Below are positions 3,196 to 61,322 of a DNA stretch of 64,000 nucleotides, one piece after another; the first letter of the stretch is position 1, and each line of letters starts with the position of its first letter. Origin of the DNA: a virus. Lineage: Duplodnaviria > Caudoviricetes. The translations under genes and the position numbers were made by a program. The DNA lies in the IMG/VR virus record IMGVR_UViG_3300047157_000186; one strand, given 5' to 3'. The notes beneath the pieces are model-generated. The model was not told the origin of the DNA. It did no database searches and was given only the letters and a program-made list of their open reading frames with translations.

Positions 3196-3437
3196 GTTTA
3201 AAAGTAGACGCTCTTAGAGCTAAGTATGTCGCTATGAGATTAGAGGCAATTGCAACATTAGAAGTGTATTCTAAAAATGCAGTGGGAATTGGTGAACACC
3301 CACAAGTCATTGAAGAAATGGATAAATTAGTAAGAACAGTAGCCGATGCAAATGGGTATATAGAAGTTCTAGATCAAATTTTCGTTGATAGCGATGAAGG
3401 TACACAAGTAGGCAAAACCGGTCAAGTAAACGGTTAA
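3192..3437 (+). CDS. conserved phage hypothetical protein
   Basis: AVGIGEHP motif, which I recall from marine T4-like phage small proteins. Confidence 0.65.
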   Translation: MSLKVDALRAKYVAMRLEAIATLEVYSKNAVGIGEHPQVIEEMDKLVRTVADANGYIEVLDQIFVDSDEGTQVGKTGQVNG

Positions 3438-3457
3438 CAAAGTCTCAACTAACCATG

Positions 3458-3489
3458 AAAATGAGGTTCTAACGAACCTCATTTTTTTT
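3458..3489 (+). terminator. Rho-independent terminator, possibly bidirectional
   Basis: aaaatgaggttc-taac-gaacctcatttt stem-loop followed by a T run, right after the 3437 stop. Confidence 0.85.
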
Positions 3490-3515
3490 GCTTTAAAGTG
3501 CAGTTAAATTTAAAT

Positions 3516-3524
3516 GATATATAA
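3516..3524 (+). promoter_or_regulatory. putative late promoter motif GATATATAA
   Basis: Recurrent motif; the G lies 12 nt before ATG 3528. Confidence 0.6.
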
Positions 3525-3527
3525 TAC

Positions 3528-4226
3528 ATGAAACATATTAGAACATATGAAAGTTTTATTGGTGAAGGAAGATCTGCATATGACGGATTAGCTTCTAAAT
3601 TAACTAAAGCTATATTCAATAAATGGGTTAAATCATATAAAGGCGGGAACGCTACAATAAATTATGGAGACCAAATTGAAGAGAGAGGTTTAGAGTTTGA
3701 TATTGAAGCTACTATTGATATTGATAAAAAATATGAAGGATTTCAAGTATTAGATTCAACAGGTGCCGATGGCAGAGACGATGATGATCACGGTGACTTT
3801 CAAACACCTTATATTATTATAGACTTTGCTTTAAATCCTGAGTGGATTCCAGGAGAATGGTCAACAGTATATTTTCATTTAGCGGATGTTGTTCGCCATG
3901 AAATGGAACATATTACACAAGATGGGATTGACACTGGAAATTACAGAAACGGCAAACCTAATGAAGACGATAGTGAACTAAGAGCCTATATAAAAATGGG
4001 ACTTTTACCAAAATCTCAATATCTAATGTTACCTAAAGAGGTAGATGCTAATTTACAAGGATTAAGATATGAGGCTAAGAAGAGAAAAGAAAACATGAGT
4101 GATACTGTTCGTAGATATTTAGATACGCAACAGGAACAGGGTGTTATTAACGACGAAGAAAGAGAACAAGTATTAGATCTTTGGAGACGAAGAGCAGCAA
4201 AAATAGGAGGTATACCTAAATTTTAA
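3528..4226 (+). CDS. putative capsid-internal zincin metallopeptidase-like protein
   Basis: HExxH (RHEMEH) plus a downstream E (PKEVDA); N-terminus MKHIRTYESFIGE resembles a capsid-targeting leader. Confidence 0.6.
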   Translation: MKHIRTYESFIGEGRSAYDGLASKLTKAIFNKWVKSYKGGNATINYGDQIEERGLEFDIEATIDIDKKYEGFQVLDSTGADGRDDDDHGDFQTPYIIIDFALNPEWIPGEWSTVYFHLADVVRHEMEHITQDGIDTGNYRNGKPNEDDSELRAYIKMGLLPKSQYLMLPKEVDANLQGLRYEAKKRKENMSDTVRRYLDTQQEQGVINDEEREQVLDLWRRRAAKIGGIPKF

Positions 4227-4227
4227 T

Positions 4228-4683
4228 ATGAAATACATAAAACTATTCGAAGAGTTTACAGCAAACAAGGTATCTTGTGATAACTGTGGTTGGTCTTGGG
4301 AAATAGAAGACGGTGGACACGATGTGTTTATTTGTCATAAATGTAATCATGATAATACACCTATTTTAGGAGAACAATTTATCTTACAGGAATTAGAAGA
4401 TCAATTCAATATAGAATTAGATTTATATGATAACGGTAAATACTTACAACTTAGTAAAATAAAAATACAAAAAGAGGACCGAAATAAAGGAATCGGTTCT
4501 AAGGTTATGTCAAGAATTACTGACTATGCCGACACACAAAATTTAAAAATATATCTAACACCTTCTAAAGATTTTGGAGCAACTTCTATTTCTAGATTAA
4601 ATAAGTTTTATAAAAACTTTGATTTTGTCAAGAATACAGATAAAAGCCAAACTAAAGATACTATGGTTAGATTACCAAAATAA
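4228..4683 (+). CDS. zinc-ribbon plus GNAT acetyltransferase, putative capsid-internal protein
   Basis: CDNC..CHKC ribbon; acetyl-CoA motif RNKGIGSKVM and LNKFYKNFDF; N-terminus MKYIKLFEEF. Confidence 0.75.
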   Translation: MKYIKLFEEFTANKVSCDNCGWSWEIEDGGHDVFICHKCNHDNTPILGEQFILQELEDQFNIELDLYDNGKYLQLSKIKIQKEDRNKGIGSKVMSRITDYADTQNLKIYLTPSKDFGATSISRLNKFYKNFDFVKNTDKSQTKDTMVRLPK

Positions 4684-4693
4684 TAAAAACAAC

Positions 4694-7654
4694 ATGAGCA
4701 ATTTTAACGATTTCCTAGGAATGCAAGCCGCAAAACTAAACATGACAAGAGAAGAGTATACTGCATACTATTTGTCAGAAGCAAAACCTGGTCCAAAACC
4801 ATATCACAGAGGATTAGATGACGATGAGATTGAAGATAAAAAAGATCAGATAAAAAAACAATCAGACATGGATGACGATGATTCTAGTGCATATAAAGAA
4901 ATGCCAGGTGATAAAGAAGCTAGAGAAAAAGGTGAAGTTAAAACATCTAAGCATGTAAAGAAATATCATGAATTATATGGTGATAAAAAAGATGAGTCAG
5001 TGGATGAAGCAACATTCAGACCAAACTCAGGTACTATGAGTGGAGGTACATATACTTTAGATAATAGAAAATATAAATTAAAAAAAGATATTGAAGGTGT
5101 TCAAATTGGTAATTATACAAATATAGTGTTACCAAAGGGAACTATTATATACAACATTCCGGGCGGTGTGTTTGCAGATCACCCTTCATTAAAAAGATAC
5201 GAGAACGGAAACAACAAATATTTTAACAAACCAACATTTAAGGGAATTTCTATTATAAGAAAAGAGGAAACTATCTTTTCAATAGATAAAAATTCAAAGA
5301 TATTAGAATCAGTAGTTACTGAAGCTAAAGCATATAAGTTAAAAGCTTCTGAATTCGGTGGAGATACACACTCAGCACCGTACAACGTAAAGGGCGAACC
5401 TACATGGAGAGTTCATAGTACTTATGCTATTGATCAAGTATCTGGAGAAAATGATGCAAGTGAAAGAGACGTAGTTTTCTTTGAAGCAATGCCTATTAAT
5501 AATGACATATACATTAAGATTGGTGGAATCAATAACCTTAAAAGAACTAATGGTTCTACATACGGTAATAACTTTGGCACTACTATTGAAGAATGGAAAA
5601 AGGATCCAAAGAGAATTGCAAAAGAAGCTTCCGAGTTTCTTACTGATGCAACGCATCTTAAATGGATAAACAAAAAAGCAAGAAGTCAGGGTCAAACAAT
5701 TAAATGGGCTTTGAAGGACGATTACTCTAGTGTGATTGTAGATCTAGTTAATAAATCATTAGGTCTTACTGAATCTCAAGTTAATGAGTTTTATTTTGAG
5801 AAAGATGAAGAAGAAAGATTACAAAAATTTGTAGATCAACTTTCTTTTGGAGATGAACTAGAATACAGAGATGGTTTTTCTACAGGTCGTGGAAGCTTTC
5901 CAAATACAAGACAACTTAAAAATGAATTAGATTCTAATTTTCAATTATTACTAACTCAAAAATCAGGTAGAAATTGGGATCTTTATGTTGGTAGTGATGA
6001 TTTAGTTTTTCTTATACAGCCAGATTTAGGTGCAAAGAATTATATGCAAGTTTCAATAAGTAGTACTAAAGAACAATGGAACGATGAGTCTAGTGTTTTT
6101 GCTAGATCCAATGGATATTCAGTATATGAATCAGTAGTTAACGAAAGAGCTAAACACACATCAACTGATTTTTCTAAACCAGGTAATGATGGTGATATTT
6201 ACTTTTCAAAAAGAGAAGGTGATGCCGTCGGCGTTAGATTAGGAGATAAATTACAAATGATTTATGTTTTTCAAGAAGAACCTAAATTAGGAAGAATTCA
6301 AAAAACTGATAAACGTTGGGAAAACATGGGTCCAGCTTCTGAAGAACTTTTAATTGATTTAAGAGGTAGAGAAGAAGGTAAAATATTATTTGACTTTGTT
6401 TCAACTCTTGAAGAATCAGTAGTTAATGAAGAAAAGATTAAATATGCTAAAGGAAAAACATATCAATCTTCTGGTCATTGGACTGTACAAGTTGATAGTA
6501 ATTCAAGTATGTGTGATATTAGAGTAAATCATTCAGCTGGTTGGAGATTAGATCCACATGATGATAGAGAAGAAACTTGGGAATTATTAGATAATGGAAG
6601 ACAAAGAGCTACAATATATTTTAAATCTGGTAATATTGATAAGTTTGCTAAACAGATGTTTGATCTTAATGATAGAACAACTTGGGGTAATAAAACAAAA
6701 TTAACTGCTAAAGATTATGCAGATATTATTAGAGTTTGGATCGATATGAAAATGGCTAATGAAGGTAATTATAACTTAGAAGATATTTATGATTTAATAG
6801 CACATCACAGATTTGATAAAGATTATAAAAAACTTTCTTCTAAAGACAGAGAGTGGATAGAGAATGATGCTGAAGAAAGAGGATTCGTAGAATCTTTATC
6901 ACCCAGATTTTTTAATTCTTTATTAGTAAAGTTAAACGAAGATTTAATTACAGAAAGTAAAGTGCCTAATTTTAAATTCGGTATGAAAAAACAATATGAC
7001 GCTGATGATATTAATCAAATGTATGGTTTTTGGGGAACTCTAGATGTTCATATGGACACTTATGAAATTGAAGAAATATGGAACGATGTATGGGGAATAT
7101 TGACAAGGGGTTGGAAGTTCTCAGATGCTGGAGCGCTATATTATCTAAACGCAAAAGCTGGTAGATGGTTAGCAGATAAAGTATGGAACGATATTAATTC
7201 TCAGATTTCTCAACCAGATGCCATTGATATGATTTTATCTGATTATGCTAGACCATCTAAATGGAAGGCATGGTCAAAAGAATATAATACATTTGCTCAG
7301 GAAGAATTGGCAGAATGTGTTATTCTAGAAAAGGCTGAAGGCGATAGAGGTCCAATCAGTGATCCTAAAATTGAAAAAGCACTTAAGACAAAATCAGAAG
7401 AAACTGGTGTGCCAATTGGTATCATTAGAATTATTATGAGAAGAGGAATGGCAGCATGGAAAACTGGTCATAGACCTGGTGCAACTGAACAACAATGGGG
7501 ATATGCTCGAGTAAATGCATTTTTAACAAAAGGTAAAGGAACTTGGGGAGATGCTGATAAAGATGTCGCTAAAGAAGTTAGAGATGAAGGTCATGATGAC
7601 GGGTTAAAGGAACAGAATTACTTTGATCAATCACACAGAAAACAAAATATATAA
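4694..7654 (+). CDS. modular putative internal-head polyprotein with repeated ESVV(T/N)E-type linkers
   Basis: ATG 4694 is preferred over TTG 4619. Linkers at 4994, 5306, 5771, 6128 and 6413; C-terminal RGMAAWKTGHRPGATEQQWGYARVNAF (DUF5824-like, from recollection). Confidence 0.7.
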   Translation: MSNFNDFLGMQAAKLNMTREEYTAYYLSEAKPGPKPYHRGLDDDEIEDKKDQIKKQSDMDDDDSSAYKEMPGDKEAREKGEVKTSKHVKKYHELYGDKKDESVDEATFRPNSGTMSGGTYTLDNRKYKLKKDIEGVQIGNYTNIVLPKGTIIYNIPGGVFADHPSLKRYENGNNKYFNKPTFKGISIIRKEETIFSIDKNSKILESVVTEAKAYKLKASEFGGDTHSAPYNVKGEPTWRVHSTYAIDQVSGENDASERDVVFFEAMPINNDIYIKIGGINNLKRTNGSTYGNNFGTTIEEWKKDPKRIAKEASEFLTDATHLKWINKKARSQGQTIKWALKDDYSSVIVDLVNKSLGLTESQVNEFYFEKDEEERLQKFVDQLSFGDELEYRDGFSTGRGSFPNTRQLKNELDSNFQLLLTQKSGRNWDLYVGSDDLVFLIQPDLGAKNYMQVSISSTKEQWNDESSVFARSNGYSVYESVVNERAKHTSTDFSKPGNDGDIYFSKREGDAVGVRLGDKLQMIYVFQEEPKLGRIQKTDKRWENMGPASEELLIDLRGREEGKILFDFVSTLEESVVNEEKIKYAKGKTYQSSGHWTVQVDSNSSMCDIRVNHSAGWRLDPHDDREETWELLDNGRQRATIYFKSGNIDKFAKQMFDLNDRTTWGNKTKLTAKDYADIIRVWIDMKMANEGNYNLEDIYDLIAHHRFDKDYKKLSSKDREWIENDAEERGFVESLSPRFFNSLLVKLNEDLITESKVPNFKFGMKKQYDADDINQMYGFWGTLDVHMDTYEIEEIWNDVWGILTRGWKFSDAGALYYLNAKAGRWLADKVWNDINSQISQPDAIDMILSDYARPSKWKAWSKEYNTFAQEELAECVILEKAEGDRGPISDPKIEKALKTKSEETGVPIGIIRIIMRRGMAAWKTGHRPGATEQQWGYARVNAFLTKGKGTWGDADKDVAKEVRDEGHDDGLKEQNYFDQSHRKQNI
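4994..6430 (+). repeat. dispersed in-frame direct repeats encoding the ESVV(T/N)E linker, locus 1
   Basis: gaatcagtagttactgaagct 5306-5326, gaatcagtagttaacgaa 6128-6145, gaatcagtagttaatgaa 6413-6430; degenerate copies at 4994 and 5771. Confidence 0.85.
7646..7654 (+). promoter_or_regulatory. putative late promoter motif variant AATATATAA
   Basis: Followed by TACATG exactly as at 3516 and 53398; starts 12 nt before ATG 7658. Confidence 0.5.
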
Positions 7655-7657
7655 TAC

Positions 7658-8344
7658 ATGAAGTATATTAAATTGTTTTTAGAATCTGAAGTCAGAGATG
7701 ACGATACTTACAGCGATTATCCAGAAGCGGCAAAGAAAAATGCTCAAATGGCAATCGATTGGAAAGAAAAGTATGGTCGCGAAGAAGTGGACGCTGGAAC
7801 TGCAGTTGGTTGGGCAAGAGCACATCAATTAGCTAAAGGTGAAAACATATCTGGAGATACAGTAAAACGTATGGCTTCATTTAATAGACATAGAAAAAAT
7901 TCATCTATTAAACCTGAATTAAAAGAAACTCCATGGAAAGATAAAGGTTATGTTTCTTGGTTAATATGGGGTGGAGATGAAGGAGTTGATTGGGCAATGG
8001 AACTATCTAAAAAGATGAGTAAAGTTGAAGAAATGGTTAGTGTTTTATCTTTAGATCAATTTATTCTAGAGAAAAAGAAAAGTAAACCAAAAACAGATAA
8101 AGAAAAAATAAAAGATCTTTCTAAAAAACAAAAGAGTTTATCTAAGAAAAACAAAGATTTTATTGAGAAAATAAATAAGATGTCTAAAGATAAATCAAAA
8201 GAACCAGCTGATAAAATAGAAACGGCATTGTTAAAATCACAAATGCAACAAACTTCTGTTGATGGCATGAAAATAGCTGTTCAAAAAAACCAATTAGCTT
8301 TGAAAGCAAAGCTAAAGACGATTAAAAAAAGATCAAAGGCATAA
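7658..8344 (+). CDS. putative capsid-internal protein: conserved phage domain plus Lys-rich C-terminal module
   Basis: MKYIKLFLESE leader; GTAVGWARAHQLA..RMASF..RH..WLIWGG domain; internal SLDQFILE followed by a basic region. Confidence 0.65.
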   Translation: MKYIKLFLESEVRDDDTYSDYPEAAKKNAQMAIDWKEKYGREEVDAGTAVGWARAHQLAKGENISGDTVKRMASFNRHRKNSSIKPELKETPWKDKGYVSWLIWGGDEGVDWAMELSKKMSKVEEMVSVLSLDQFILEKKKSKPKTDKEKIKDLSKKQKSLSKKNKDFIEKINKMSKDKSKEPADKIETALLKSQMQQTSVDGMKIAVQKNQLALKAKLKTIKKRSKA

Positions 8345-8348
8345 TAAT

Positions 8349-8831
8349 ATGAAATATATTAAATTATTTGAATCATTTGTAAATGATAAAGAGATCAAGG
8401 ACTGGGAAAAAGATAACGGTAAACTACCGATTCCCAAGAAGATCATAGAGATATCTAAGGATATGGCAAAGGAAGGTTTTATTAGAAAAGATACTAAGGC
8501 GGTTCAAGCTAAATTATGGATTGGATTAGAAGGAATTTCATGGATAGAAATGAAGCAAAAGTTTGGAGATATAGTAGGTAAATTTTATGGTGGAGAATTC
8601 TATAATGCTATGACAAACCCTATGGCAGAAAAATCAGCCTATTATGCATATGAAGTTTCGAAGCATGTTAGTGATATGGTTGCTAATGAAGAATCAGTAG
8701 AACCTGCTTACTATCTAATGAAAAATTATTTTAATTCATTTGGATTAAATATTAACAGAAATAAACTTTTCGACAGAGCAGAAAGAGAACTAGATGCATG
8801 GATGAAAAACAACAAAATAGAAACGTTATAA
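8349..8831 (+). CDS. putative capsid-internal protein
   Basis: MKYIKLFESF leader, 160 aa. Confidence 0.6.
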   Translation: MKYIKLFESFVNDKEIKDWEKDNGKLPIPKKIIEISKDMAKEGFIRKDTKAVQAKLWIGLEGISWIEMKQKFGDIVGKFYGGEFYNAMTNPMAEKSAYYAYEVSKHVSDMVANEESVEPAYYLMKNYFNSFGLNINRNKLFDRAERELDAWMKNNKIETL

Positions 8832-35338: not shown

Positions 35339-38300
35339 ATGAATACTAATAACTCTATTTCTAATTCGCTCAAGAAACTACTTGAAATTAATTCAAATTC
35401 TTTAAAGACATTTGAAAGAATCAATGAGGCGATAACTACAGATCAAAAGGATGTACCTCTTGAATTGCTAACTGAAGACGGAACTAAAACTGTTTATGTG
35501 CCTTCCTTTGGTTACATGAAAAGAGAATTAGAAAGATTAGATGTTAATTTAAAATCTTTAGCAGGTTTAGGAAAAGGAAATACTAGGATTAAATTACCAG
35601 ACGGTACTTACCAAAGTATTATTACAACACGATTAAAAACTCCTGCAAATGACATAACTAGTTTTGTTAGACCAGTTAATTTTGGTACAAAACCTAACTA
35701 TTTCTTTGAAGACTTTTTAAATCCTTTACTTACAACTAGTATTAATGTTAGTGGACAAATTCCAAATGAAACTGAAAGAGTTTTAGTAAAACGAATTTTA
35801 TTTGATTCTACAAGTGCAGTCACTGTTGAATATTTTAACACTAATTTTAAAAACAAAGAAAACCTAGATTATAATACTGTAATTAGAGATATTGCAAATA
35901 ATAGTTTAACATACATACTAGATGAAGATACTCGTGATCTTCCATATAGAACTGCACAATTTACTGGTAAATTTGATGTATTAAAAATTAGTAATTCTAA
36001 AAGAGAAGTTTTAGTCGATGGCGTTACTAAAAAGAAAGCTATAAAATTATACACTATAGATTCTTTAACATATTCTGATTCTAATAAAGATCTAAAAGAT
36101 ACTGAAGCACTTAAGGTTGGAGATGAATTAATGGTTCAAAGCGGTGCTAGAAATACTAGATATAAAATAACTAGAATCGATGGTTCGGCTAATCAGGTTG
36201 AATTATTAATAGTAGAAGGATATGAATCTATTAAGATCGGAGCCAATCAACTGGGCATATATAAAAACGATGAGGCCAACTTAAGCATAGATATTAATGT
36301 AGGATTTAATGAAAGAGCATTAGTTTTTGTTAAAGCTATAGATTCAGATTCTAAAATATTGGCAGAAAATTGGTCACCTGGTATTGGATTTTATTCAAAC
36401 GAATTAACATTAATCCAAGCTGATGGGTCATCAATTAGATTAGATGATTATTACAAAGCAGAAGTTGCTGATTTTGGGAAATATATTACAGCACTTAAAG
36501 AAGATGCTATCCCTCCAGCAGCACAAGGTATTACACCTGATGCTCCTTCTTTAAACAATAACAACTTTAAAGTAGTTCAAATTAATTCTCATTTGACGGC
36601 TAACGATACTGCTGATAAAATTAAGAAGCTATCTGCTGATAAAATTAATGTAGAAGAGAAGATTAAGAAATTAGATGAAACTATAGTTAAAAAACGTTCT
36701 GAAATTTCTACTAAAAAATATGAATCTTCGATACAACAAGATAAAGATAAAAATGAATTAAACTCACTTATTACAGAGAGAACAAGTGAAACTAGTTTAT
36801 ACAATAGTATTGTAAATCAAATTCAATCATTAGCTTCTGGAAGCAATGCACCAAAAATTGCCCCTAAGTATAGGGTTAGAGGATTCTGGGAAATTCCAGT
36901 GGCAAAGAAAGTTGCTGATACATTAGATCAAAACATTGTTAGATTTGTTGTACAATATAGATACTTGTCAACTAGCGGAAAAGCAAGTGAAGTTACTCAA
37001 CTACCGTTTACTGATGGAACAAGAGAAAAAACAGCAGTCTTTTCTAACTGGAATGAAATGGAAACTAAAGTTAGATCTAGATATAGAAACTCGATCACTA
37101 GAAAATTTGAGTGGAAAGATAGTTTAGTAGAGGATGCACAAGAGGTAAACTTTAACCAACTAGATCTTGCAATTAACGAAGGTGAATTAGTTGAAATTAG
37201 AGTTAAATCAGTATCTGAAGCTGGATATCCTGCAAACCCAATATATTCTGATTGGTCAGAATCAATTACAATTGATTTTCCTATTACAGAAATCGATACT
37301 ACTAATGTTGACGCATTGTTAATGTCAAATGCGGCTGAAACAGCATCCGTTAAAATATCACAAGAACTTACCTCTAAAGGTGTGTTTACACATATTGATG
37401 ATTCATTTAGTGCTAACGAAAAATATTATGCACATAACGCAACATCAATTGCATCAGGATTCTTATCAGCTGAACAAAAACCAATCTCAGTATATGATAA
37501 AATTGCTGAGTTAGAATTACAAATTTCAGAGCTTAAGGGTACGGTAGAAGTTGAAATAGGTGAATTAGTTGTTAAAATAATGGATGAGGACGGTACAATT
37601 ACCGTTATTAACAATGACACCAAAAACCAAATATTTGCTGGTTATTATACAGATGAGGTTGCAAGTCTTACTGTTAAAAAAGGTCACATTGTTACAAAGA
37701 CGTTTAAACTTCTATTAGAAAACACAAAAGCTACTAAACTTGAATTAGTTTCAAGATTAGTTGGAGATAGAAACTTACCAGCATATAGATCTAGTGCATC
37801 AGGTACTAGTATTGCTGATAATGGGTTTGGTGTAAAATTAAATGATTTAGGAGTTGCTGACACCGATAATAAAATTTCGTCAGACAATTATTACACATCT
37901 GAAGGTAAATACGATTTAGTTCCTATTCAGTTTCAAAATATAAGTACATCTTCTATTAATTCTTATGATTTATTAGCTGAAGCACCGTATCAATCAGCAC
38001 AAAGACGTGGTCAATTTGTTTATTCTAGATTTATGGATGTTTCAAATCAAAATCCGCTATATGTTACTGAATCATTACTTGGTAGTGGGTCGGTAGATTT
38101 TAATAGTTATGAATATGGTTTAGGGTATGCTATTTTTGAAGGTGATTCAAGTGCAATTAACATTAAAGCATCAACAGGTAACGGTGATTCGGTAGATTTC
38201 ATATGGACTGGAACGTTCGGTACACATGGTAATTCTACAAATGCAGACTTAAGTGGAGGTTTTCAATCTGACAAAATAGATGTATGTAGTGTTGGAACTA

Positions 38301-39055
38301 TAGGTGCTGCGAATTATAATAATGGTTTATATCTTCACAAGGATCATCCTGATTTAGAGAACATATATTCATCATATGTTGAAGCTGTGCCTAATTCAAG
38401 TAGTGTTTCAGACGCGGATCAAAAAGATAATTTACAAGATGTTGTAGATAATGCACTTTATACAATGCCGATTCCTTCTACATATGCAACTGGAACAACG
38501 TTTGTTTATAACAATCCATTAATAGGAAATAGCTTTTCATCTCCACTGGTGGATGCAGTTAAAGCTACAAAACAATTAGCGTTTCAAAAAACTGATAATA
38601 ATTTCATCAAATCGGGCGACAGAACATTTAAAATGTCATTTGATGCAAATGACCAATTTCTTTTAGGTGGACGCTCATGTGGTGCATTCTTATTTTTATC
38701 GCCTATTAATTTAGATACTTTAAAAGTTGAAGGTGATGCTAAACAAAGTAGAAAAAGTATTAAAAAGAAAGTCGGTACTTTAGACAGTTCTAGCGCTCTT
38801 TCAGTTGATATTATATTCCAATATAGAATGACTGATTATTTTGGTAACGATCCTGATTCTGATATCGGTAGAGTAGGTGGTCAAGCTAAATTAAGATTCC
38901 CAAATCTTACATACACTAAGAAAATAGGATTAGATATTTTTGACAAATATGATCAACAATTCTCATTTGATTTAGAAGTGTTTGCTAAATATAGAGCTAA
39001 AGGTAAAAACTTAAATTCTATTAGAGCTGCGAAGCTAACTAGATTCGCTAGATAA
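35339..39055 (+). CDS. large putative structural protein
   Basis: 1238 aa in the tail cluster; central coiled coil and an FN3-like segment. Confidence 0.5.
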   Translation: MNTNNSISNSLKKLLEINSNSLKTFERINEAITTDQKDVPLELLTEDGTKTVYVPSFGYMKRELERLDVNLKSLAGLGKGNTRIKLPDGTYQSIITTRLKTPANDITSFVRPVNFGTKPNYFFEDFLNPLLTTSINVSGQIPNETERVLVKRILFDSTSAVTVEYFNTNFKNKENLDYNTVIRDIANNSLTYILDEDTRDLPYRTAQFTGKFDVLKISNSKREVLVDGVTKKKAIKLYTIDSLTYSDSNKDLKDTEALKVGDELMVQSGARNTRYKITRIDGSANQVELLIVEGYESIKIGANQLGIYKNDEANLSIDINVGFNERALVFVKAIDSDSKILAENWSPGIGFYSNELTLIQADGSSIRLDDYYKAEVADFGKYITALKEDAIPPAAQGITPDAPSLNNNNFKVVQINSHLTANDTADKIKKLSADKINVEEKIKKLDETIVKKRSEISTKKYESSIQQDKDKNELNSLITERTSETSLYNSIVNQIQSLASGSNAPKIAPKYRVRGFWEIPVAKKVADTLDQNIVRFVVQYRYLSTSGKASEVTQLPFTDGTREKTAVFSNWNEMETKVRSRYRNSITRKFEWKDSLVEDAQEVNFNQLDLAINEGELVEIRVKSVSEAGYPANPIYSDWSESITIDFPITEIDTTNVDALLMSNAAETASVKISQELTSKGVFTHIDDSFSANEKYYAHNATSIASGFLSAEQKPISVYDKIAELELQISELKGTVEVEIGELVVKIMDEDGTITVINNDTKNQIFAGYYTDEVASLTVKKGHIVTKTFKLLLENTKATKLELVSRLVGDRNLPAYRSSASGTSIADNGFGVKLNDLGVADTDNKISSDNYYTSEGKYDLVPIQFQNISTSSINSYDLLAEAPYQSAQRRGQFVYSRFMDVSNQNPLYVTESLLGSGSVDFNSYEYGLGYAIFEGDSSAINIKASTGNGDSVDFIWTGTFGTHGNSTNADLSGGFQSDKIDVCSVGTIGAANYNNGLYLHKDHPDLENIYSSYVEAVPNSSSVSDADQKDNLQDVVDNALYTMPIPSTYATGTTFVYNNPLIGNSFSSPLVDAVKATKQLAFQKTDNNFIKSGDRTFKMSFDANDQFLLGGRSCGAFLFLSPINLDTLKVEGDAKQSRKSIKKKVGTLDSSSALSVDIIFQYRMTDYFGNDPDSDIGRVGGQAKLRFPNLTYTKKIGLDIFDKYDQQFSFDLEVFAKYRAKGKNLNSIRAAKLTRFAR

Positions 39056-39135: not shown

Positions 39136-42100
39136 ATGTCACAAATTACATTAAGAAATTCTAATACGGGAGCAGATCCAGCCAATGGAGCTAATAGTTT
39201 ATGTTTTAGTGGCCTAGATGGTATATTAGATTTATATTACACTGGTACATTAACTGCAAATGGTGGAAGTTCAGCCACAGGAACAATATTAAATACCGAT
39301 AGTGCTAACCCCACTCCATGGGATGGACAGAATAAATTGTACATTGATGAGTTAGGTTGTAATATATTAAGAATATCCAGTGCCGGTGAAGTAATGGAGT
39401 TATTTTCAAATGACACGGGTACAGGTGTGCCAGTGTGTACTCCTGTAATTACTGTAACAGGTCCTAATCTTATTGATGATCACTTAGAAGGTACAGTATA
39501 TACTGACCAAGGTGCTACTTTAGAGGAAGAGTGCCCATCTGGTGGTAGTATAACGGTAACAGGTGTACCCGATGGCATGACAGTTGGAAATTATACTATA
39601 ACATATACATATCCTAACGCAGTAGATAAAATTAGAACTGTAAATGTGGTTCCAGCTCCGACACCAGTTCCACCAACAGCAACGCCTGTGCCAACACCCG
39701 TGCCAGATACAACGCCTCCGGTAATATCGCTTACTGGAAATGCTATAATAACTATCGAGGTAGATCCATCTTTTACAGGTCCATATATTGAAGATGGTGC
39801 TACGGCATTGGATGATGTAGATAATGACATTTCATCGCTCATAGTAATTGGAAATTTAAATAATGTAGATCCAACTAACGTTGGCGTTTACACGATTACA
39901 TATAATGTTAGTGATACCGCAGGAAATCCCGCAGTTGAAGTTACTAGAGAAATTCAAGTTGTAGATACTACAATACCTGTAATTGTACTTCAAGGGGATA
40001 ATCCTTTAAACATTAATATTGGTGCTGCATATAGTGAACCTGGTTTCGCCGCAACTGATAATTATGACGACAATGCAACTCTTACTGGTGCTGTAGTTGT
40101 AGGAGGTGATACTGTGGATAACTCAACAGTTGGTCAATATAATATAACATATAATGTAACTGATTCAAGTAATAATAATGCAGTAGAGGTAATTCGCGTT
40201 GTTAATGTAAACGACACTTCAGCTCCAATTCCAGAAAACGAGACATATGATGTGGCTTGGAATGCAACGCTCGCTATTATATTAGAAGCTTCAGATAACG
40301 TAGATTCTTCTGGTAGTTTAACATATACTATAGTAGATCAGCCAACTAAGGGACAATTAAATGCAGATGGAGGTGATCTCTTTACATATACTCACACTGC
40401 AACAGTATACGGACAAGATTCTTTTACTTTTACAGCGACTGATTCAGAAGGGAACGTTTCTCTTCCTGGCACAATAACAATAAATCCAATAAACAGTGCA
40501 CCTGTTTTAACAGATCCTGGATCAATACAATTACAACAAAATTCAAGCGTTGTATTTAATGTTGGTATACAGGATGCTGATGGCGACGCAATAACAATTA
40601 TTGAAGATACTGCTGTTTCAAATGGTACAATTCAACTTATACAAACGTCTAGCAACTTAGAGGTAACATATACACCTAATCTTGGTCATTTTGGTGGAGA
40701 CACATGGGTCATCATAGGTGAGGATAGTAAATCAGAGCAATCAATTCCACTAACTATTAACTTTGCTATTGAGGCCGTTCCGTATTTTGAAATGGATGCT
40801 TCATCATTTGGTAGTGATCCAGATGCCATGTGTATTGCACCTAAAACTACAAATGTTTACGGTGGAACAACATACGCAAATAATGTTAGTGAATTATCAA
40901 TAGGTGATACGGTTTATTATGATCAAAATTTAACTAATAAAGTTACAAGACCTAGTAATACTGCAATATACATAAAGGTTTCTGATTCTAGTAAAACCAG
41001 AGTATTAGGTATTAATGCCAATGGAGCAATTACAAGTATTAAAGAATGTGAAAGTAATGCTAATTCTGTATTTACACCAGTTAGATATGCAAGTAGTGAA
41101 AACGCATTCTGTGATAATGATGTACAAATCACAAATCTTTGGTATAATGATGATGGAAGTGGTTCAAAAACTTTACTTGAATTAGTAAACGGTTTTGTAA
41201 ATGTATTTTCTAACGAATATGACTCAGATTTATTTACTGTTACTAATACAGTACAGAGTTCTATAGAAAGCGGAGTTTATGGAGATGTAGATATTACTTT
41301 GAATAAATTTTATAAAAGATCATCTATTAATACATGGGGAGAAAACAATGAGGCAAACTCAGGTGGGTTTGATTTTGAGTGTGAGGAAGAAGTGCCACAG
41401 GAAACGTTTCCAATAACTGTTCAGTATTTACCAAACTTTGAGGATCCAAATTTAAATGAATTTTGTGCGGGTCAAATTGATAATGAACTCACAAATGTTA
41501 CTCTATGGTTTAGTAGAGATTTAGGTGCGTCAGCAATTAGTAACTTGTTAGAATTAGCACAGTCAAATATTGCCATATACAAATCTCAATTAGGTGCACA
41601 ATCACAAGATCCTTTAGATTTATTTGAATCTAACATATTTGCACAAGGTGGTGACGGACATTTAGCGTGGGATAATCTTGGTGATGGTAAAAATTTAAAT
41701 TGGTATGGATATGATATTAATAATAGGCTAGTTGTTGGAACTGATATTGTAAGTTGGGGCTCGTGTTCAACATATAATGATAGACCTGAGATTAATGGTC
41801 TAAATGATATAACAAGTGGTAATAATGATGTAAATATGTTTTACGCATTCTACTCTTATATGCCTGAAATAGAAGGACCCGAAGGTAGTGATCAAAATGA
41901 TTCAGAAGATATATTTTGGCCAATATATGTAATAGATGGTCTACATACGATTAGTTCAGGAGACACTGGTAGTTATATAAAAGATTTTATAGATAATTTA
42001 ACGATAGGAAATGTAGTTACATCTAATAACACTGGAGAATGTTTGGCATATGTTTCTAATATTGTAGCCGAAGACATAGATGATGCTGTATTATTACTAA

Positions 42101-45100
42101 AAAATAATTTATTAGATTCTAGGCAAAGGCCAGTTGTTTCTAGTGGAATTCAACTAGGTTTTGCTAGTGAAGAGGTTATTAAGGTTTATGAAGATTCCGA
42201 AGCTACTAAATGTGTTCTCGGTAATGAAGCTGAAATTATTAGTACATACACGTTCCCGTTTGTTAGTGATTATGATTCTGTTAAAGCAGGTCCAAATTTT
42301 AACACAGAAACTAATTACAAGTTAGATAATGTCGCCAAGCCTTTATTAAGAACTAATCCTAAATTATCTGGAAATATAAAAATAGTTACAGATTCTAGCG
42401 GTACAGTATATTTAGAGAGTATAAATGCAAGTGAAAAACTAGCAGGAATAAAGTACAAAAAACATCCTATTAATCCAAATGGAAATTACGCTAAAGATGT
42501 GGCTTCTTTTTTTAGAGCCACTGGAACTCCATCTGATTTAATTTATTTAACTAAAAGGGCTAATTCTGATTTAACGGTTCATGATTCTTATAATAAACAA
42601 GTAGAAGAGGAATATCAATATGGAACAACTTATAATTATTCTAAAAATTATGATGAAGGCTATAAAATGTTTGCACCTATATGGGCAGATAACAATATGC
42701 CAAATAATTTTGTAATATTTAAAGTAAAAGATCCTAGTCTATTGGATTCTACTCATACAAATAGTAGTAATGCTGAAAGAATTTCCAGTATGTTGAAAAA
42801 TGCTGAGATAATTAAATCATTTGATTTATCAAAAGAATCAGATTTAGGAAAATATATCAGAACTCATGTACAACAGGAAACTTTCCCTAAAGCACCTTTA
42901 ACTGTTTCGTTTAATAAAAATGAAAATACTAATTACAACGGTATAGATTTAAAATCGGGTGAATTAACAAGTAAGGGCGAATATATTTACAAGGATTTTG
43001 TAGAAACTGACAAACCTCTTATTGAGGCTAATGATTTTATAACTGATGGTTTTAAAAGAAACGACATGTTATGTGCCAATTTATTGAATTTAGAATTCTT
43101 ATTCGATGATGATAGTGGAGCAGATTATAGTGTTAGTAGATATTTTGGATTATATGTTGACACAATAGATTCGGGTGTAGGTGAGATTAGTTCTATTAAT
43201 AATAACAATGTAATTACTTTTGGTAAAATTGATTCATTAGTTGATAGTACAAATCCAGTTACGGCAATCCCTAGTTATAAACAAATGTCTACATCACCAA
43301 CTTTAGGTTACGTGAAGATAAATGATATTTTCTATAAGATATCAAACACTGGTCTTTATGATCCATTTAAGTTAGAGGTTAAAGTAGACGGTGATAATGA
43401 AATTATATCAAATACTATAGGTATTTCACATGTTGGTAGATCTGTCAATTTAACCAGAAATGAAGATCAAGGTTTTGATTTTGTTAAAATGACAATAATA
43501 GGAACACCTGATGGTGCTGATAAAATAGCGGTATTAGAATCAAGAGAAGAATCATACAAGTTTACGTTTGTTAAACACACACCTGGAGAACTAATTAATA
43601 TTGAAATAGAAGACAATGGTGTGATATCTAATTTGTTTAATAATGATGTACAATTAGGTGTTGATTTTGAGACTACTGCAGCTAACATTATAACTACACC
43701 AAAAGATGCAAACTTAAATATTACATTTGATTATAATACTAAATCTGTAATTATAACCGAAATCAAAACAAATTTAGGTGATCTTAACATGAGAATCACG
43801 GGTGCTATTAGTTCTATTGTTAGGGTTGATCAACTTCAGTCTAATGTTAATTTACAAGACAGAACATATGTTTCTAATTACACATTACCAAAGGGTACTT
43901 ATAAAGGACAGCAGTTTTCTAATCAAGGGACTACAGGTGATATAGCATCCGCGTTGGCATCTGCAATACATGATGATGATAGTGAATTAGATTCGTATAA
44001 CGTAGGTTCAGACATTTTTGTAAAAACAAAGATACCTGGTTATAGATTAAATCAACATGTTATATTGGTTAACAAAGAGAACGTTACTGATTTTATCAAA
44101 GTAGAAAATGAAGATTTAAATAATATACTAAATCTTAAAGAAAGTAGTAATTCTATAAAAGAAAATTGGAGATCTCATTATTTAAGTGGTGGTAACACAC
44201 GTAATAGATCAGTGTTTGTTGATAATACTACTTTAAGTGAAATATCTACCGGAGATTATTTAGAAACCAATTATGAGGGTATTTACAATAAGGTATTAGA
44301 TATTGTTGAAGATATTGATTCTATTGATTCTACTAAATCTAAAATAATATTATCTTTAGATTCAGATATTAATGATGGAGAAACAAGAGTTTTTAATAAT
44401 AATATAGTACATGTTGGTTTATTCTCAGCATATAATCTATATGATATGGATTTTGATTTTTATGACACTTCAAATTCTGATCTAAAAGAGTTATCTTTAG
44501 AAACTAGAGAGAATATAAATTACGAACCATATGAAAATGCTATATTAAACATAGATCCAATTACTTCTGAGTTTAATTCAGTATTAGCTGCGAGTGACAT
44601 ATTTGATGATAATTATGCATTAGAGCCGATTGATTATTTTTCTAATTTATCCGGAATATTATCTGAAGAAACTATAGATGAAGAGTTATCTGAAAATATT
44701 ACAAGTGAATTTGATAGACTAAAAGAAAACGAGTTAAAAGAATTTGCTACTAAATCTAGAGTAGTTCCTAATATTAACAAATGGGTTTTAAAAGATTCAT
44801 TAAATATTAAAGAACAGCCATATTATTTGAATATTAATGAAGCCTTTGGTAGAACTAATTTCTCCCCTGATTTAAGTGCGGTCGGTCGTAGTAAAAACGA
44901 TATGACACATGAATGGTTTTATATGGATAAAAATCCAAAGTATTTAAGATATGATGAATTAAACCAAGGATTTTCATATGTAAACTTCATTGAAGATTTT
45001 GAATTAACATCTGATTTATTTAAAAGTACTAAAAACAATTACTTTGATAAATTTATGATTTCTGAAGGATTTGAAAAAAATCTAAATAAAGAAGATCTCG

Positions 45101-53397: not shown

Positions 53398-53406
53398 GAT
53401 ATATAA
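53398..53406 (+). promoter_or_regulatory. putative late promoter motif GATATATAA
   Basis: The G lies 12 nt before ATG 53410. Confidence 0.6.
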
Positions 53407-53409
53407 TAC

Positions 53410-59024: not shown

Positions 59025-61322
59025 ATGTATAAATTAAAATCTTTTGATCAGTTTTCTACTGAATCACAAATCAATAGATCTAGACAAGTAGAAGAAGAAA
59101 ACTCTACTAAAAGAAGTACTGAAGCAGAAACATATAAAAATTTACTTGGTGAATTTAAAGTTACTTCTATCAAAGAATTAACTGAAGAGCAAAGAATCGA
59201 ATTTTTTACTAAGTTAAGAGGCGCTGAGATTAACGAAGCAACTGTTTTAATTGAAGAAGGAACTAGAGGACAAATTGGTAAAATCGATAAAAAAGGAAAT
59301 ATCACTTCTGTATATATGCATTATGATTCATATCCTGAAAACATATTACCTATTATAACTTCAACTTTTAAAGATGGTAAAAATGTAGATTTTATTCTTA
59401 AGAATGGAGACAGTTCGGGTTTAGATAAAGATGTTAAGAAGATTAATTTCTACGGGAACTTTACAGCGTCTAAGGGTAAAATTGCTAATATATCTAAATA
59501 TCTAAGGGATGTTGCTGATGGCGGCGGCGCTGAATTCGTATACTTATGGGATGAAGCCAACAAAGAATGGTTAATGGCAGACATTTACGGTAAAGGATAT
59601 GATGATGTTTACCCAGCGTTTGAATCTTTAACTACTTCAGTAAATGAAGCTATTTCAGTTCAATATAAAAGAGACGCAAAAAAAGTTTTAACAGTTTATA
59701 AAAATTTATTTACTAAGAAACTAACAGATTTTGGTGCAATGGACAAAGTAGGTACATTAGGTTGTATTAAGTATCTTTTTGAAGAAGCGATGACAGATGC
59801 TAATTTCCACAGAGAGAAAGTTATATCTAAGAATATTAAAGGTAGAATAGGTTCATTTGAATTAAAAGTAGCAGGTTTAGGTAATCACTTTTTAACAATA
59901 GGTGCTACTACTACAAAAAGAATTTTAGATAAACATTATAGTGACCTTGCAAATGCAGCTGGTTGGTCAGGAATCGGAATTGTTGAAGGTACTGCTCTTT
60001 ATTTAGAGAGTATTAAAGAAGAAGCTTCAGGTCAAGCTTTATTAAATGCGTTTAACATGTTTGAGTCATTTGCGTATGACGAAGGAGATGCTATCAATGA
60101 GAAATCATATGATAAAAAGTCTTTAATGAAAGCTATGAAAGCAGATGATGGCATGATTCAATTAGGAAATGGACAAGAGTATGTTATTTATGCATATGGT
60201 AATGGCAACGATAACAATGATGATATGTGGGGAGATAAAACAATCTTTGGATTAGATCAAGACGGAGAAGAACATGAGATTAAATATTCTGACATTGTAA
60301 GTTATAATGAAGCTACTGTAGTAATGGATGCAATGGATCCTAAATCAAAGATACTTAAAAAACTTTTAAAGAAACATAACGTTAAAATGAAAGTTTTAGA
60401 TCCTAGTGGACCAAGTGGTTGGCCAGAGGTTGAAATGACAGGTTCAAGAGAAGATCTGCAAGCAGTTTTAGCATCTGAAGATGGTTGGGACGACGCTGGT
60501 CTAGAAGAATATATTGAAGAATCAGTAGTTACTGAATCACACCCAAAATGTTCAAATAAAAAAGGACATGCATACAAAGAAATTGACAAAGACGGAACTG
60601 TAGAATGTGAATATTGTGGTTTAAGAAATTCATTAAGCGAATCAGGGGTTACTGAAGCTAAATTTGTTAAAGAGTTTGACGAGGCTGTTTTAAAAGCAAC
60701 TACACAAGAAGAGGTTCTTGAAATTTATCCAAACGCAGAATTCTTTATTGGCAAATCAGATCATTTCTTTGGAGAGTTTGATGAAAATTTATTCTTTAAA
60801 GCATATTATACCAAAGGACAAAAAGAATTTGAAATCAAGTCAATTTATTCTGAAAAAAACAGTAACTATGTTCACTTATATAATGAATCAGTAGTTACTG
60901 AAGCTAAAGGCTTTAAAAACACAACAGATTTCGAAAAATTCTTAATAGAAATTGATGGAATGGGAGAAGCTCAAATTAAAAAGATAATGGGTAAAGATTA
61001 TATCGATACTCCTGGTTATTATCAAGATGAAAAAGATGATTATGATGATGTGGAAGATTTTATGAGATCTAATATGGGCACTTCAGAATTTGAAAAACTT
61101 GAATCATGGTGGGAAAGCAACGTTGCAGAATCAGTAGTTACTGAAGCTGAAGTTAATTCAGATGAAGAATTTGAAGAATATGCGGTAACTGTTTTACAAA
61201 AAGCATTTGGAGAAGATTTTGACGAAGCTAAATCTAAAAAAGTTATAGACGGTATTTTATCTAAAGCAGATGGAGATTATGGTACTGCAGTTGGTATGCT
61301 AACTAGCTCGTTAGGACAATAA
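59025..61322 (+). CDS. second modular putative internal-head polyprotein with ESVVTE linkers
   Basis: Leader MYKLKSFDQFSTE; linkers at 60519, 60639, 60885 and 61128; modules include a VYMHYDSYP domain and a C/H zinc finger. Confidence 0.7.
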   Translation: MYKLKSFDQFSTESQINRSRQVEEENSTKRSTEAETYKNLLGEFKVTSIKELTEEQRIEFFTKLRGAEINEATVLIEEGTRGQIGKIDKKGNITSVYMHYDSYPENILPIITSTFKDGKNVDFILKNGDSSGLDKDVKKINFYGNFTASKGKIANISKYLRDVADGGGAEFVYLWDEANKEWLMADIYGKGYDDVYPAFESLTTSVNEAISVQYKRDAKKVLTVYKNLFTKKLTDFGAMDKVGTLGCIKYLFEEAMTDANFHREKVISKNIKGRIGSFELKVAGLGNHFLTIGATTTKRILDKHYSDLANAAGWSGIGIVEGTALYLESIKEEASGQALLNAFNMFESFAYDEGDAINEKSYDKKSLMKAMKADDGMIQLGNGQEYVIYAYGNGNDNNDDMWGDKTIFGLDQDGEEHEIKYSDIVSYNEATVVMDAMDPKSKILKKLLKKHNVKMKVLDPSGPSGWPEVEMTGSREDLQAVLASEDGWDDAGLEEYIEESVVTESHPKCSNKKGHAYKEIDKDGTVECEYCGLRNSLSESGVTEAKFVKEFDEAVLKATTQEEVLEIYPNAEFFIGKSDHFFGEFDENLFFKAYYTKGQKEFEIKSIYSEKNSNYVHLYNESVVTEAKGFKNTTDFEKFLIEIDGMGEAQIKKIMGKDYIDTPGYYQDEKDDYDDVEDFMRSNMGTSEFEKLESWWESNVAESVVTEAEVNSDEEFEEYAVTVLQKAFGEDFDEAKSKKVIDGILSKADGDYGTAVGMLTSSLGQ
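60519..61148 (+). repeat. dispersed in-frame direct repeats encoding the ESVVTE(A) linker, locus 2
   Basis: gaatcagtagttactgaa at 60519; gaatcaggggttactgaagct at 60639; gaatcagtagttactgaagct at 60885 and 61128 (identical to 5306). Confidence 0.9.

Follow-up and report, generated by a model that had tools for sequence, protein, structure and literature searches.

In bacteriophage T4 the prohead protease gp21 cuts after L/I-x-E and gp22 is cleaved at a Glu-Ala bond, and the first 10 residues of the internal protein IPIII are enough for packaging and are afterwards removed (PMC9026906). The T4 internal proteins are unrelated apart from a common targeting sequence (PMC3012670), and for the polyvalent proteins of phages and conjugative elements co-delivery with DNA has been proposed, as has, for some of them, cutting into pieces (Iyer, Burroughs, Anand, de Souza and Aravind 2017, PMC5512222). 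Here we compare with these systems a gene found in a 64,000-nucleotide (nt) stretch of DNA from a tailed virus (Caudoviricetes; IMG/VR record IMGVR_UViG_3300047157_000186), the whole of which is referred to as the window. The open reading frame (ORF) at positions 4694-7654, in the following called the array, is in our view established as a genuine string of exchangeable cassettes with a conserved linker, and with a probability of roughly 0.55 we take it to encode a capsid-cargo polyprotein processed by a prohead protease, a reading drawn from sequence comparison.

The window, with a G+C content of about 32%, is AT-rich, has every long ORF on one strand and includes genes for a baseplate wedge protein, helicases, a dCMP deaminase and a UvdE-like endonuclease, and by its content it appears to come from a large tailed phage. 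The array ORF (4694..7654, + strand; protein P0001) is a single open frame of 986 codons encoding 986 amino acids (aa) or 113 kDa, and a protein identical to P0001 is present on contigs in 60 blocks of public assemblies. It holds nine modules of 58-149 aa each (7.7-17.4 kDa counting linkers), which are laid out as follows, where breakpoints are positions at which alignments with relatives end, loose ends are positions at which contigs from RNA-library assemblies part from the window, A4 is the alignment of the C-terminal third of the array, and arrows mark predicted cuts here and below.

4694..4780 (aa 1-29), + strand: N-terminal segment MSNFNDFL...YYLSE, a variant leader with the end LSE↓A; breakpoint at aa 25-27
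4781..4993 (aa 30-100), + strand: module M1, acidic and of low complexity; internal in many longer arrays
4994..5008, + strand: linker 1, ESVDE; breakpoint peak at aa 100-108
5009..5305 (aa 106-204), + strand: module M2, predicted compact beta-rich domain with a weak SH3-like resemblance
5306..5323, + strand: linker 2, ESVVTE, GAATCAGTAGTTACTGAA; loose end at 5330
5324..5770 (aa 211-359), + strand: module M3, alone in P0148 and P0210 and at varied positions in >60 proteins
5771..5788, + strand: linker 3, ESQVNE; loose ends at 5771 and 5787; breakpoint
5789..6127 (aa 366-478), + strand: module M4, with breakpoints on either side; the rarest module among relatives
6128..6145, + strand: linker 4, ESVVNE, GAATCAGTAGTTAACGAA; left end of a 285-nt indel; loose end at 6130
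6146..6412 (aa 485-573), + strand: module M5, present or absent between near-identical phages; stand-alone in P0161 and P0246
6413..6430, + strand: linker 5, ESVVNE, GAATCAGTAGTTAATGAA; loose ends at 6408-6431
6431..6751 (aa 580-686), + strand: module M6, alone in P0208 and P0241; on either side of M3 in relatives
6752..6763, + strand: degenerate linker MANE; breakpoint peak at aa 690-699; loose end at 6763
6764..6937 (aa 691-748), + strand: module M7, with breakpoints; low-confidence helical model
6938..6955, + strand: degenerate linker EDLITE, aligned in A4 with ESIVTE, ESMITE and ESVNE of relatives
6956..7312 (aa 755-873), + strand: module M8, predicted helical domain; its AlphaFold DB matches are small unnamed stand-alone proteins
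7313..7330, + strand: degenerate linker ECVILE, aligned in A4 with ESVINE and ESIINE of relatives
7331..7612 (aa 880-973), + strand: module M9, which is DUF5824 (PF19141); arrays of this kind usually end in it

The nine modules are mutually dissimilar, every pairwise BLASTP comparison giving E > 0.2, and this agrees with an earlier reading of the DNA (the sequence-only reading), which had described the ORF as segments without resemblance to each other, joined by protease-site-like linkers and released as small effectors upon head maturation. The five strong motifs are found where that reading had placed them (ESVDE at aa 101, ESVVTE at aa 205, ESQVNE at aa 360 and ESVVNE at aa 479 and 574), and the weaker sites it had pointed out, MANE (aa 687), LITES (aa 751) and VILE (aa 876), turn out to be true junctions, since they coincide with breakpoints in homology. 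In BLASTP alignments with about 250 relatives the ends of high-scoring segment pairs peak at aa 25-27, 100-108, 205-215, 355-368, 480-495, 565-580, 675-697, 735-765 and 870-880, peaks that correspond to the five strong linkers plus MANE, EDLITE and ECVILE, with nearly no internal alignment ends between them. The N-terminus (aa 1-29) is kept in many relatives, and one relative, P0164, shows MANESVINE where the array has MANE.

A word-indexed search returned 744 relatives of 572-1717 aa, many of which match the query in parts only but at high identity, and an exhaustive search with aa 1-830 returned 386 cluster representatives, each matching one or a few discrete segments. The order of modules is permuted, M6 preceding M3 in P0039 and P0053-P0055 and following it in P0001 and P0058, and every module is found also as a small stand-alone ORF. 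The modules thus behave as the independent units that they had been proposed to be, each recurring alone or in other architectures, and the pieces lying between linkers in about 250 proteins make up at least 66 unrelated families.

Gain and loss of whole modules is likewise evident at the linkers when relatives are aligned. At the locus of P0003 (L022) the DNA to either side matches the window at 98% identity, exactly 285 nt (M5) are missing, and the junction is one hybrid linker, flanked on its left as linker 4 (6128) is and on its right as linker 5 (6413) is, which is what would be left by recombination between two 18-nt linker copies. The same 285-nt skip, from 6142 to 6428, occurs in a contig from a marine RNA library (run X3), and contigs of four metatranscriptome libraries part from the window at 5330, 5771/5787, 6130, 6408-6431 and 6763, that is, at linkers. 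Furthermore, P0085 and P0086 have an extra whole module inserted at the position of ECVILE, closed by ESVVTE or ESVVNE, and an invariant module content, which would have spoken against exchange, is clearly not seen among the relatives.

A six-frame scan of the window finds ES-x-V-(T/N)-E only in ORF 4694-7654 and ORF 59025-61322, and ES-x-V-x-E occurs 361 times in the 115,189 residues of 120 relatives as compared to 2.9 occurrences expected from composition. The family consensus is (L/V/I)(N/D)-E-S-V-V-(T/N)-E-(A/E/G)-K, Ala being most frequent after the site, and the variants ESLVTE, ESIVNE, ESKVNE and ESQVNE keep the amino-acid pattern despite the change in DNA, S, the second V and the last E never varying. 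The 18-nt linker DNA, GAATCAGTAGTTA[A/C]TGAA, is in addition conserved at the codon level: all six canonical linkers of the window read GAA TCA GTA GTT A(A/C)(T/C) GAA, although the usage of the TCA, GTA and GTT codons in the window is just 0.27, 0.40 and 0.48, and the same codon bias is found between other modules on related loci. Since the codons are biased and the amino-acid pattern nonetheless survives changes in the DNA, both levels appear to be constrained, and since codon-level conservation is accompanied by a module-sized indel bounded by linkers, one and the same element may be processing site and exchange junction. The close orthologues L005 and L006 share 85-91% of all codons with the array, too many for a comparison of synonymous sites to be informative. 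It should also be mentioned that GAATCAGTAGTTA(A/C)TGAA has stops in both other frames (TAG; TAA or TGA), so that an out-of-frame junction would terminate at once, but this may be coincidence and is given no weight.

Conservation of the linker codons and an indel whose two ends lie exactly at linker copies would also be accounted for by a role of the linker in DNA without any cleavage, and the array could accordingly be an uncleaved multidomain ('polyvalent') protein in which the linker is a flexible joint and a recombination scar and no protease takes part. Like the polyvalent proteins of phages, which contain 2-15 domains, are highly variable and are in some cases packaged or transferred whole (PMC5512222), the array unites nine unrelated modules in one phage polypeptide with an architecture that varies among relatives, and its gene is situated outside the head module. 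We nevertheless consider this explanation unlikely, since the protein pattern of the linker is kept where the DNA differs, as in the four variants given above, and since the domains characteristic of polyvalent proteins were not found in the Pfam scan. Two further observations, on the leader and on the distribution of potential cleavage sites, are also at odds with it.

Many small stand-alone genes of this phage group begin with a leader of the form MK(Y/H)IKLFE-x-F-(V/I/L)-(N/T)-E, of which the linker is the C-terminal half, and this leader, one example being MKYIKLFEEFVNE, is a candidate targeting signal. Stand-alone copies of modules start with MKHFKLFEEFVNE, MKNLHTFEEFLNE, MMKTFNQFVNE or MKKLHTYKQFVNESVNE, with the module body directly after, and the stand-alone M2 copies P0227 and P0220 bear the leader. 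The correspondence can be followed on the module of a gene next to the array:

7658..8344, + strand: neighbouring stand-alone cassette gene with leader MKYIKLFLESEV; its module is internal to arrays in >40 relatives

In P0059 and P0135 the module of this gene is preceded by an N-terminal MKYI-ESVLNE or MLYIK-ESVLNE, and inside the arrays P0038, P0190 and P0017 it is preceded by ...LK-ESVLNE or ...LN-ESILNE. In a different protein on contig G002, furthermore, an entire former leader, Met included, is embedded in frame ahead of a 92%-identical copy of M3. As leader and linker are thus swapped in front of the same modules, stand-alone leader genes and array modules are interconvertible, and these comparisons show the linker to correspond to the tail of an N-terminal leader. 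The leader in turn resembles the capsid-targeting sequence of T4 and ends in the gp21-type motif (I/L/V)-x-E, and the trait known from T4 internal proteins, that the cargo is hypervariable among related phages and the leader retained, is seen here as well.

Had the protein remained uncleaved, there would be no reason for a recombination scar to equal the end of a stand-alone N-terminal leader. A different possibility is that leader and linker are kept for a nucleic-acid function only, as a recombination or homing site or as a signal for translation or transcription, and that the encoded peptide is incidental. The strong codon bias of the linker, the stop codons in both of its other frames and the promoter-like ATATATAATAC located directly against the ATG of several leader genes are in agreement with such a function, but the leader DNA is diverse where the pattern hydrophobic-E-x-hydrophobic-hydrophobic-(N/T)-E is kept, and the linker variants likewise retain their amino-acid pattern, making this explanation rather improbable.

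With V/I/L at P3 and Glu at P1 the linker fits the T4 gp21-type site (I/L/V)-x-E, and a second (I/L/V)-x-E is often found five residues upstream, as in ILE-S-V-VTE; such doubled sites match the redundancy known for the propeptides of giant phages (PMC9026906). The sequence-only reading had invoked the phiKZ and SPN3US proteases along with that of T4, and this comparison is less apt, because P3 is Val, Ile or Leu and not a small residue. Taken as a whole that reading is partly supported, in that the modular string and the fit to a T4 gp21-type site stand and the likeness to phiKZ and SPN3US is weaker. It makes no mention of the conservation of the linker in DNA, nor of the linker as the place where a module-sized indel starts and stops.

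The placement of (I/L/V)-x-E within the array ORF is far from random, as 15 of the 17 sites lie at most 8 residues from the independently mapped breakpoints (binomial P = 3e-10); the total for the whole ORF (17 versus 13.5) is not unusual, so it is placement alone that is unusual. The module bodies contain 2 sites where 8.7 are expected (P = 0.003), one representative each of the 66 module families together contain 35 where 60.7 are expected (z = -3.8), and in other proteins of the window the ratio of observed to expected is about 1 or more. Exposure to a protease with this specificity would select for such avoidance. The depletion inside modules is left unexplained by a pure DNA signal and likewise argues against a polypeptide that is never cut.

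Candidates for the protease and for other head components come from three related IMG/VR contigs, G002-G004, which carry arrays with the same linker and are estimated to be 42-49% complete at 117-149 kb. Peptidase_S77 scores above the Pfam cut-off on all three and is absent from G001, the nearest to the window among the fragments compared. It is fused to a long, acidic, coiled-coil-like region of scaffold type (as in L017 of G002, 1-1914 on the minus strand; L016 of G004, from 1432 onward), giving 615-689 aa in one ORF, whereas the gp21 protease and gp22 scaffold of T4 are separate genes. G002-G004 also encode a gp23-type capsid protein, in which INE↓AE is found near the N-terminus, at residue 26 in L020 (G002) and at residue 7 in L021 (G004), while the alternative position is without Glu in each, and this looks like relocation of a candidate cleavage site. 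The scaffold ends in VETVNE↓A or MITE↓S, and small leader-bearing genes lie between the portal, protease and capsid genes. In T4 the core proteins gp67 and gp68 occupy this position in the head block. The nearest matches to the capsid protein of the related contigs come from an uncultured 462-kb phage (52% identity) and from Lak megaphages (40%). Of the traits of a protease-processed viral polyprotein, putative sites between the units and a candidate protease class (S77) have been identified by sequence.

According to the reading that we prefer, processing of the array by a prohead protease, the gene would give rise to a beads-on-a-string precursor of nine unrelated modules with copies of E-S-x-V-(N/T)-E in between, some of them degenerate. 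The precursor would go into the prohead core and a T4 gp21-type (Peptidase_S77) prohead protease would cleave it after every (V/I/L)-x-E, so that the released modules become separate internal head proteins and leave with the DNA at infection. One short element would in this way act both as protein processing site and as junction for the exchange of DNA cassettes. More tentatively, and at somewhat less than even odds, huge marine phages may hold a large pool of such cassettes, of which about 250 proteins yield at least 66 families, and the 18-nt element may be protease site and in-frame recombination junction alike. Any cassette could then be inserted into a polyprotein, taken out of it or shifted within it and would still be packaged, released and injected, amounting to a translated, integron-like and injected arsenal.

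A number of observations do not sit well with processing in the prohead. Module bodies are moderately depleted in (I/L/V)-x-E, to about 0.2-0.6 of the expectation from shuffled-sequence nulls, and conservation of E-S at P6-P5 goes beyond the known need of T4 gp21. The S77 prohead protease is known from related contigs and not from the window's own genome, and the array lies among genes of nucleotide metabolism and replication (UvdE-like endonuclease, dCMP deaminase, helicase), outside the head module. Furthermore, the array itself starts with only a weak form of the leader, MSNFNDFLGM...YYLSE↓A, whereas its neighbours and stand-alone homologues have a clear MKYIKLFEEF...(V/I/L)(N/T)E, and the codon-level conservation could mean that the linker is kept for recombination only.

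Structural models were made with AlphaFold for two regions, aa 98-214 (59 sequences) and aa 693-986. In the model of M2 with both its linkers, pLDDT (predicted local distance difference test) is > 90 for aa 118-207 and < 50 in both linkers, and the model of aa 693-986 consists of two helical domains with pLDDT of 70-88 for M8 and 57-86 for M9/DUF5824 and a dip to 35 at ECVILE, M7 being poorly modelled. The predicted folds in these two regions therefore do not span the linkers, as would be anticipated for separable modules.

Searches for function gave little beyond M9. A Pfam scan of the array to E values up to 1 found DUF5824 alone (aa 898-957, E = 3.2e-14, 53.6 bits against a cut-off of 25, profile positions 61-125 of 127), and in PHROGs only the DUF5824 part and a single family without known function were matched. 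M9 is strongly conserved in A4 and is the only part of the array with relatives in cultured phages, namely HTVC008M, Melnitz and C48C1; an M1-like stretch also precedes DUF5824 in gp130 of Pelagibacter phage HTVC008M. Profile searches of the PDB with alignments A4 and A5 gave no match, Foldseek had no PDB hit with E <= 0.001 for either of the two models, the matches among AlphaFold DB clusters were only unnamed or DUF5824 proteins, and a feature search of the ESM Atlas with M3 gave no usable match. The best Z score obtained with VIA-align, 4.5 for an SH3-like match of M2, is too low to indicate anything beyond a common arrangement. Rows for anti-Thoeris Tad2, AcrIIA7 and an integron cassette protein had Z < 3 or E > 0.3 and were rejected as evidence of an anti-defence function.

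The surroundings of the array are of interest with respect to both transcription and processing, and contain the following features in addition to the gene at 7658..8344.

3459-3489, + strand: terminator hairpin with a T-run, read from the sequence
3516-3527, + strand: promoter-like GATATATAATAC, abutting the ATG of 3528
3528-4226, + strand: leader gene, MKHIRTYESFIGE, 232 aa, with a HEMEH motif; upstream of arrays in close relatives, with 54% identity in L013 and L015
4228-4683, + strand: leader gene, MKYIKLFEEF, 151 aa, zinc-ribbon-like CxxC...CxxC, with a weak sub-threshold GNAT match
8349-8831: leader-bearing gene in the tightly spaced gene run

The genes at 3528-4226 and 4228-4683, the array, and those at 7658-8344 and 8349-8831 are tightly spaced, leader genes thus surrounding the array, while 3459..3527 is the probable start of the transcription unit that contains it. 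The protein of 4228-4683 also matches part of the 3925-position PHROG profile phrog_10691. The motif (G/A)ATATATAATAC lies directly at the ATG of three leader genes, at 3516-3527 (for 3528), 7646-7657 (for 7658) and 53398-53409 (for 53410), which leaves no space for a ribosome-binding site and suggests that the mRNAs are leaderless or nearly so. For the T4 late promoter TATAAATA the window has 13 matches versus 16 expected and thus shows no enrichment. The stretch 3400-8400 is present in 16 marine metatranscriptome runs, which come from at least 15 studies, and contigs of four runs cover it; this fits transcription and is also compatible with carry-over of DNA.

The H-E-x-x-H motif of ORF 3528-4226, conserved as it is upstream of arrays, raises the question of whether this protein could be a small zincin-type peptidase, and indeed peptidases of zincin type have been proposed to process polyvalent proteins (PMC5512222). 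The linkers might then be cut outside the capsid, by this protein or by a protease of the host, and the modules would act in the producing cell instead of being injected. The protein has however no match by sequence to a family in Pfam or PHROGs, peptidases included, nor to a solved structure in the PDB, so that its nature as a peptidase is a guess from five residues. In addition, T4-type prohead proteases are characterised by Glu at P1 together with a hydrophobic P3, and the same motif is found in the capsid and scaffold proteins of the related contigs, which makes a protease acting outside the capsid a very doubtful candidate.

A second array is present towards the end of the window.

59025..61322, + strand: second array, P0122, 765 aa, with leader MYKLKSFDQFSTE and linkers ESVVTE (three times), ESGVTE and ESNVAE

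Four to five of its linkers share codons with those of the first array, and one of its modules matches PHROG 1987 (unknown function). The ORF at 62617-63999 exits the end of the window, and its last 40 residues start a cytidylyltransferase-like domain, the enzyme that is fused upstream of DUF5824 in HTVC008M gp130. Elsewhere, the ORFs at 39136-47211 (2691 aa) and 35339-39055 (1238 aa), which are downstream of the baseplate genes, probably encode tail-fibre or host-recognition proteins, the latter matching PHROG 29329 (unknown function) strongly.

Should the linkers be cut in the prohead, the array would represent a polyprotein strategy in a tailed DNA phage, by which a single targeting event would load many small proteins and by which the cargo repertoire could be re-dealt through recombination at the DNA of the cleavage site. 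The way in which large uncultured marine phages carry many small proteins that are annotated without a function, and diversify them, would thereby be explained, and a simple rule, a leader or linker ending in V-(N/T)-E, would predict virion-delivered proteins from metagenomes and yield a list of candidates for proteins that act early, anti-defence or takeover factors among them. The phage in question is a common one, considering the 60 assembly blocks and 16 marine RNA libraries mentioned above. Even without cleavage, the in-frame exchange of cassettes at an 18-nt junction is a clear and datable case of domain shuffling under way.

No description of such arrays was found in searches of full texts on DUF5824, on polyproteins with prohead proteases, or on capsid targeting in marine or jumbo phages, and the T4 internal proteins and the polyvalent proteins are the nearest known counterparts. 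Polyvalent proteins share with the array the presence of many unrelated domains in one phage polypeptide of extremely variable architecture. Their repertoire (zincin peptidase, ParB-like DNase, methylase, ArdC-N, lysozyme) was however not detected in the array by Pfam, PHROGs or PDB profiles, the modules of the array are much smaller, and a uniform linker tied to a capsid-targeting leader is not part of the description in PMC5512222, where the word 'linker' is never used and the phages considered here do not figure. HTVC008M gp130 ('cytidyltransferase', PHROG 3041) has a C-terminal DUF5824 (42% identity) after the M1-like acidic stretch, and junctions of the types TVNE↓E and VDEE↓A follow its N-terminal enzyme domain, but it consists of two or three units only, has no canonical ESVV(T/N)E, and is matched by tblastn in the DUF5824 module alone.

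The phages phiKZ, 201phi2-1 and SPN3US are likewise large and contain big internal cargo that is cut after Glu at short motifs, sometimes at redundant sites, and the doublets of the array (ILE-S-V-VTE), for which cleavage is a prediction, look like this redundancy. The proteases of these phages however prefer a small residue at P3 (S/A/G-x-E), they mostly remove propeptides and do not separate cassettes, and shuffling at the cleavage sites is not described for them. With respect to exchange a parallel is offered by the attC cassettes of integrons, in which a short conserved DNA element also flanks swappable units and presence or absence is defined exactly at the repeat. The promoter-stem-loop cassettes of T4-type phages are another shuffling system that depends on short conserved DNA junctions. 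The junction of the array differs from both in being in frame and translated, so that exchange keeps the frame, and in having no dedicated recombinase evident.

The internal proteins IPI, IPII, IPIII and Alt of T4 correspond best. They have in common with the leader-bearing genes of this phage group a short leader of amphipathic pattern ending in (L/I/V)-x-E, often followed by Ala, and an unrelated small cargo that varies among related phages, and a gp21-type S77 protease and a gp23-type capsid protein are present in the related contigs. In T4, however, each internal protein has one gene and one leader, whereas the arrays fuse up to nine or more modules in one ORF and reuse the tail of the leader as linker, and leader and linker units are far more numerous per genome in the array phages, for which packaging and cleavage are predicted from sequence. 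The array is best called novel over the capsid-targeted internal proteins of T4 in that the cargo appears to be fused as a polyprotein, that the tail of the leader would form the site between modules, and that the same DNA element bounds a module indel, and the system may constitute a hitherto undescribed means of loading a changeable set of small proteins into the capsid.

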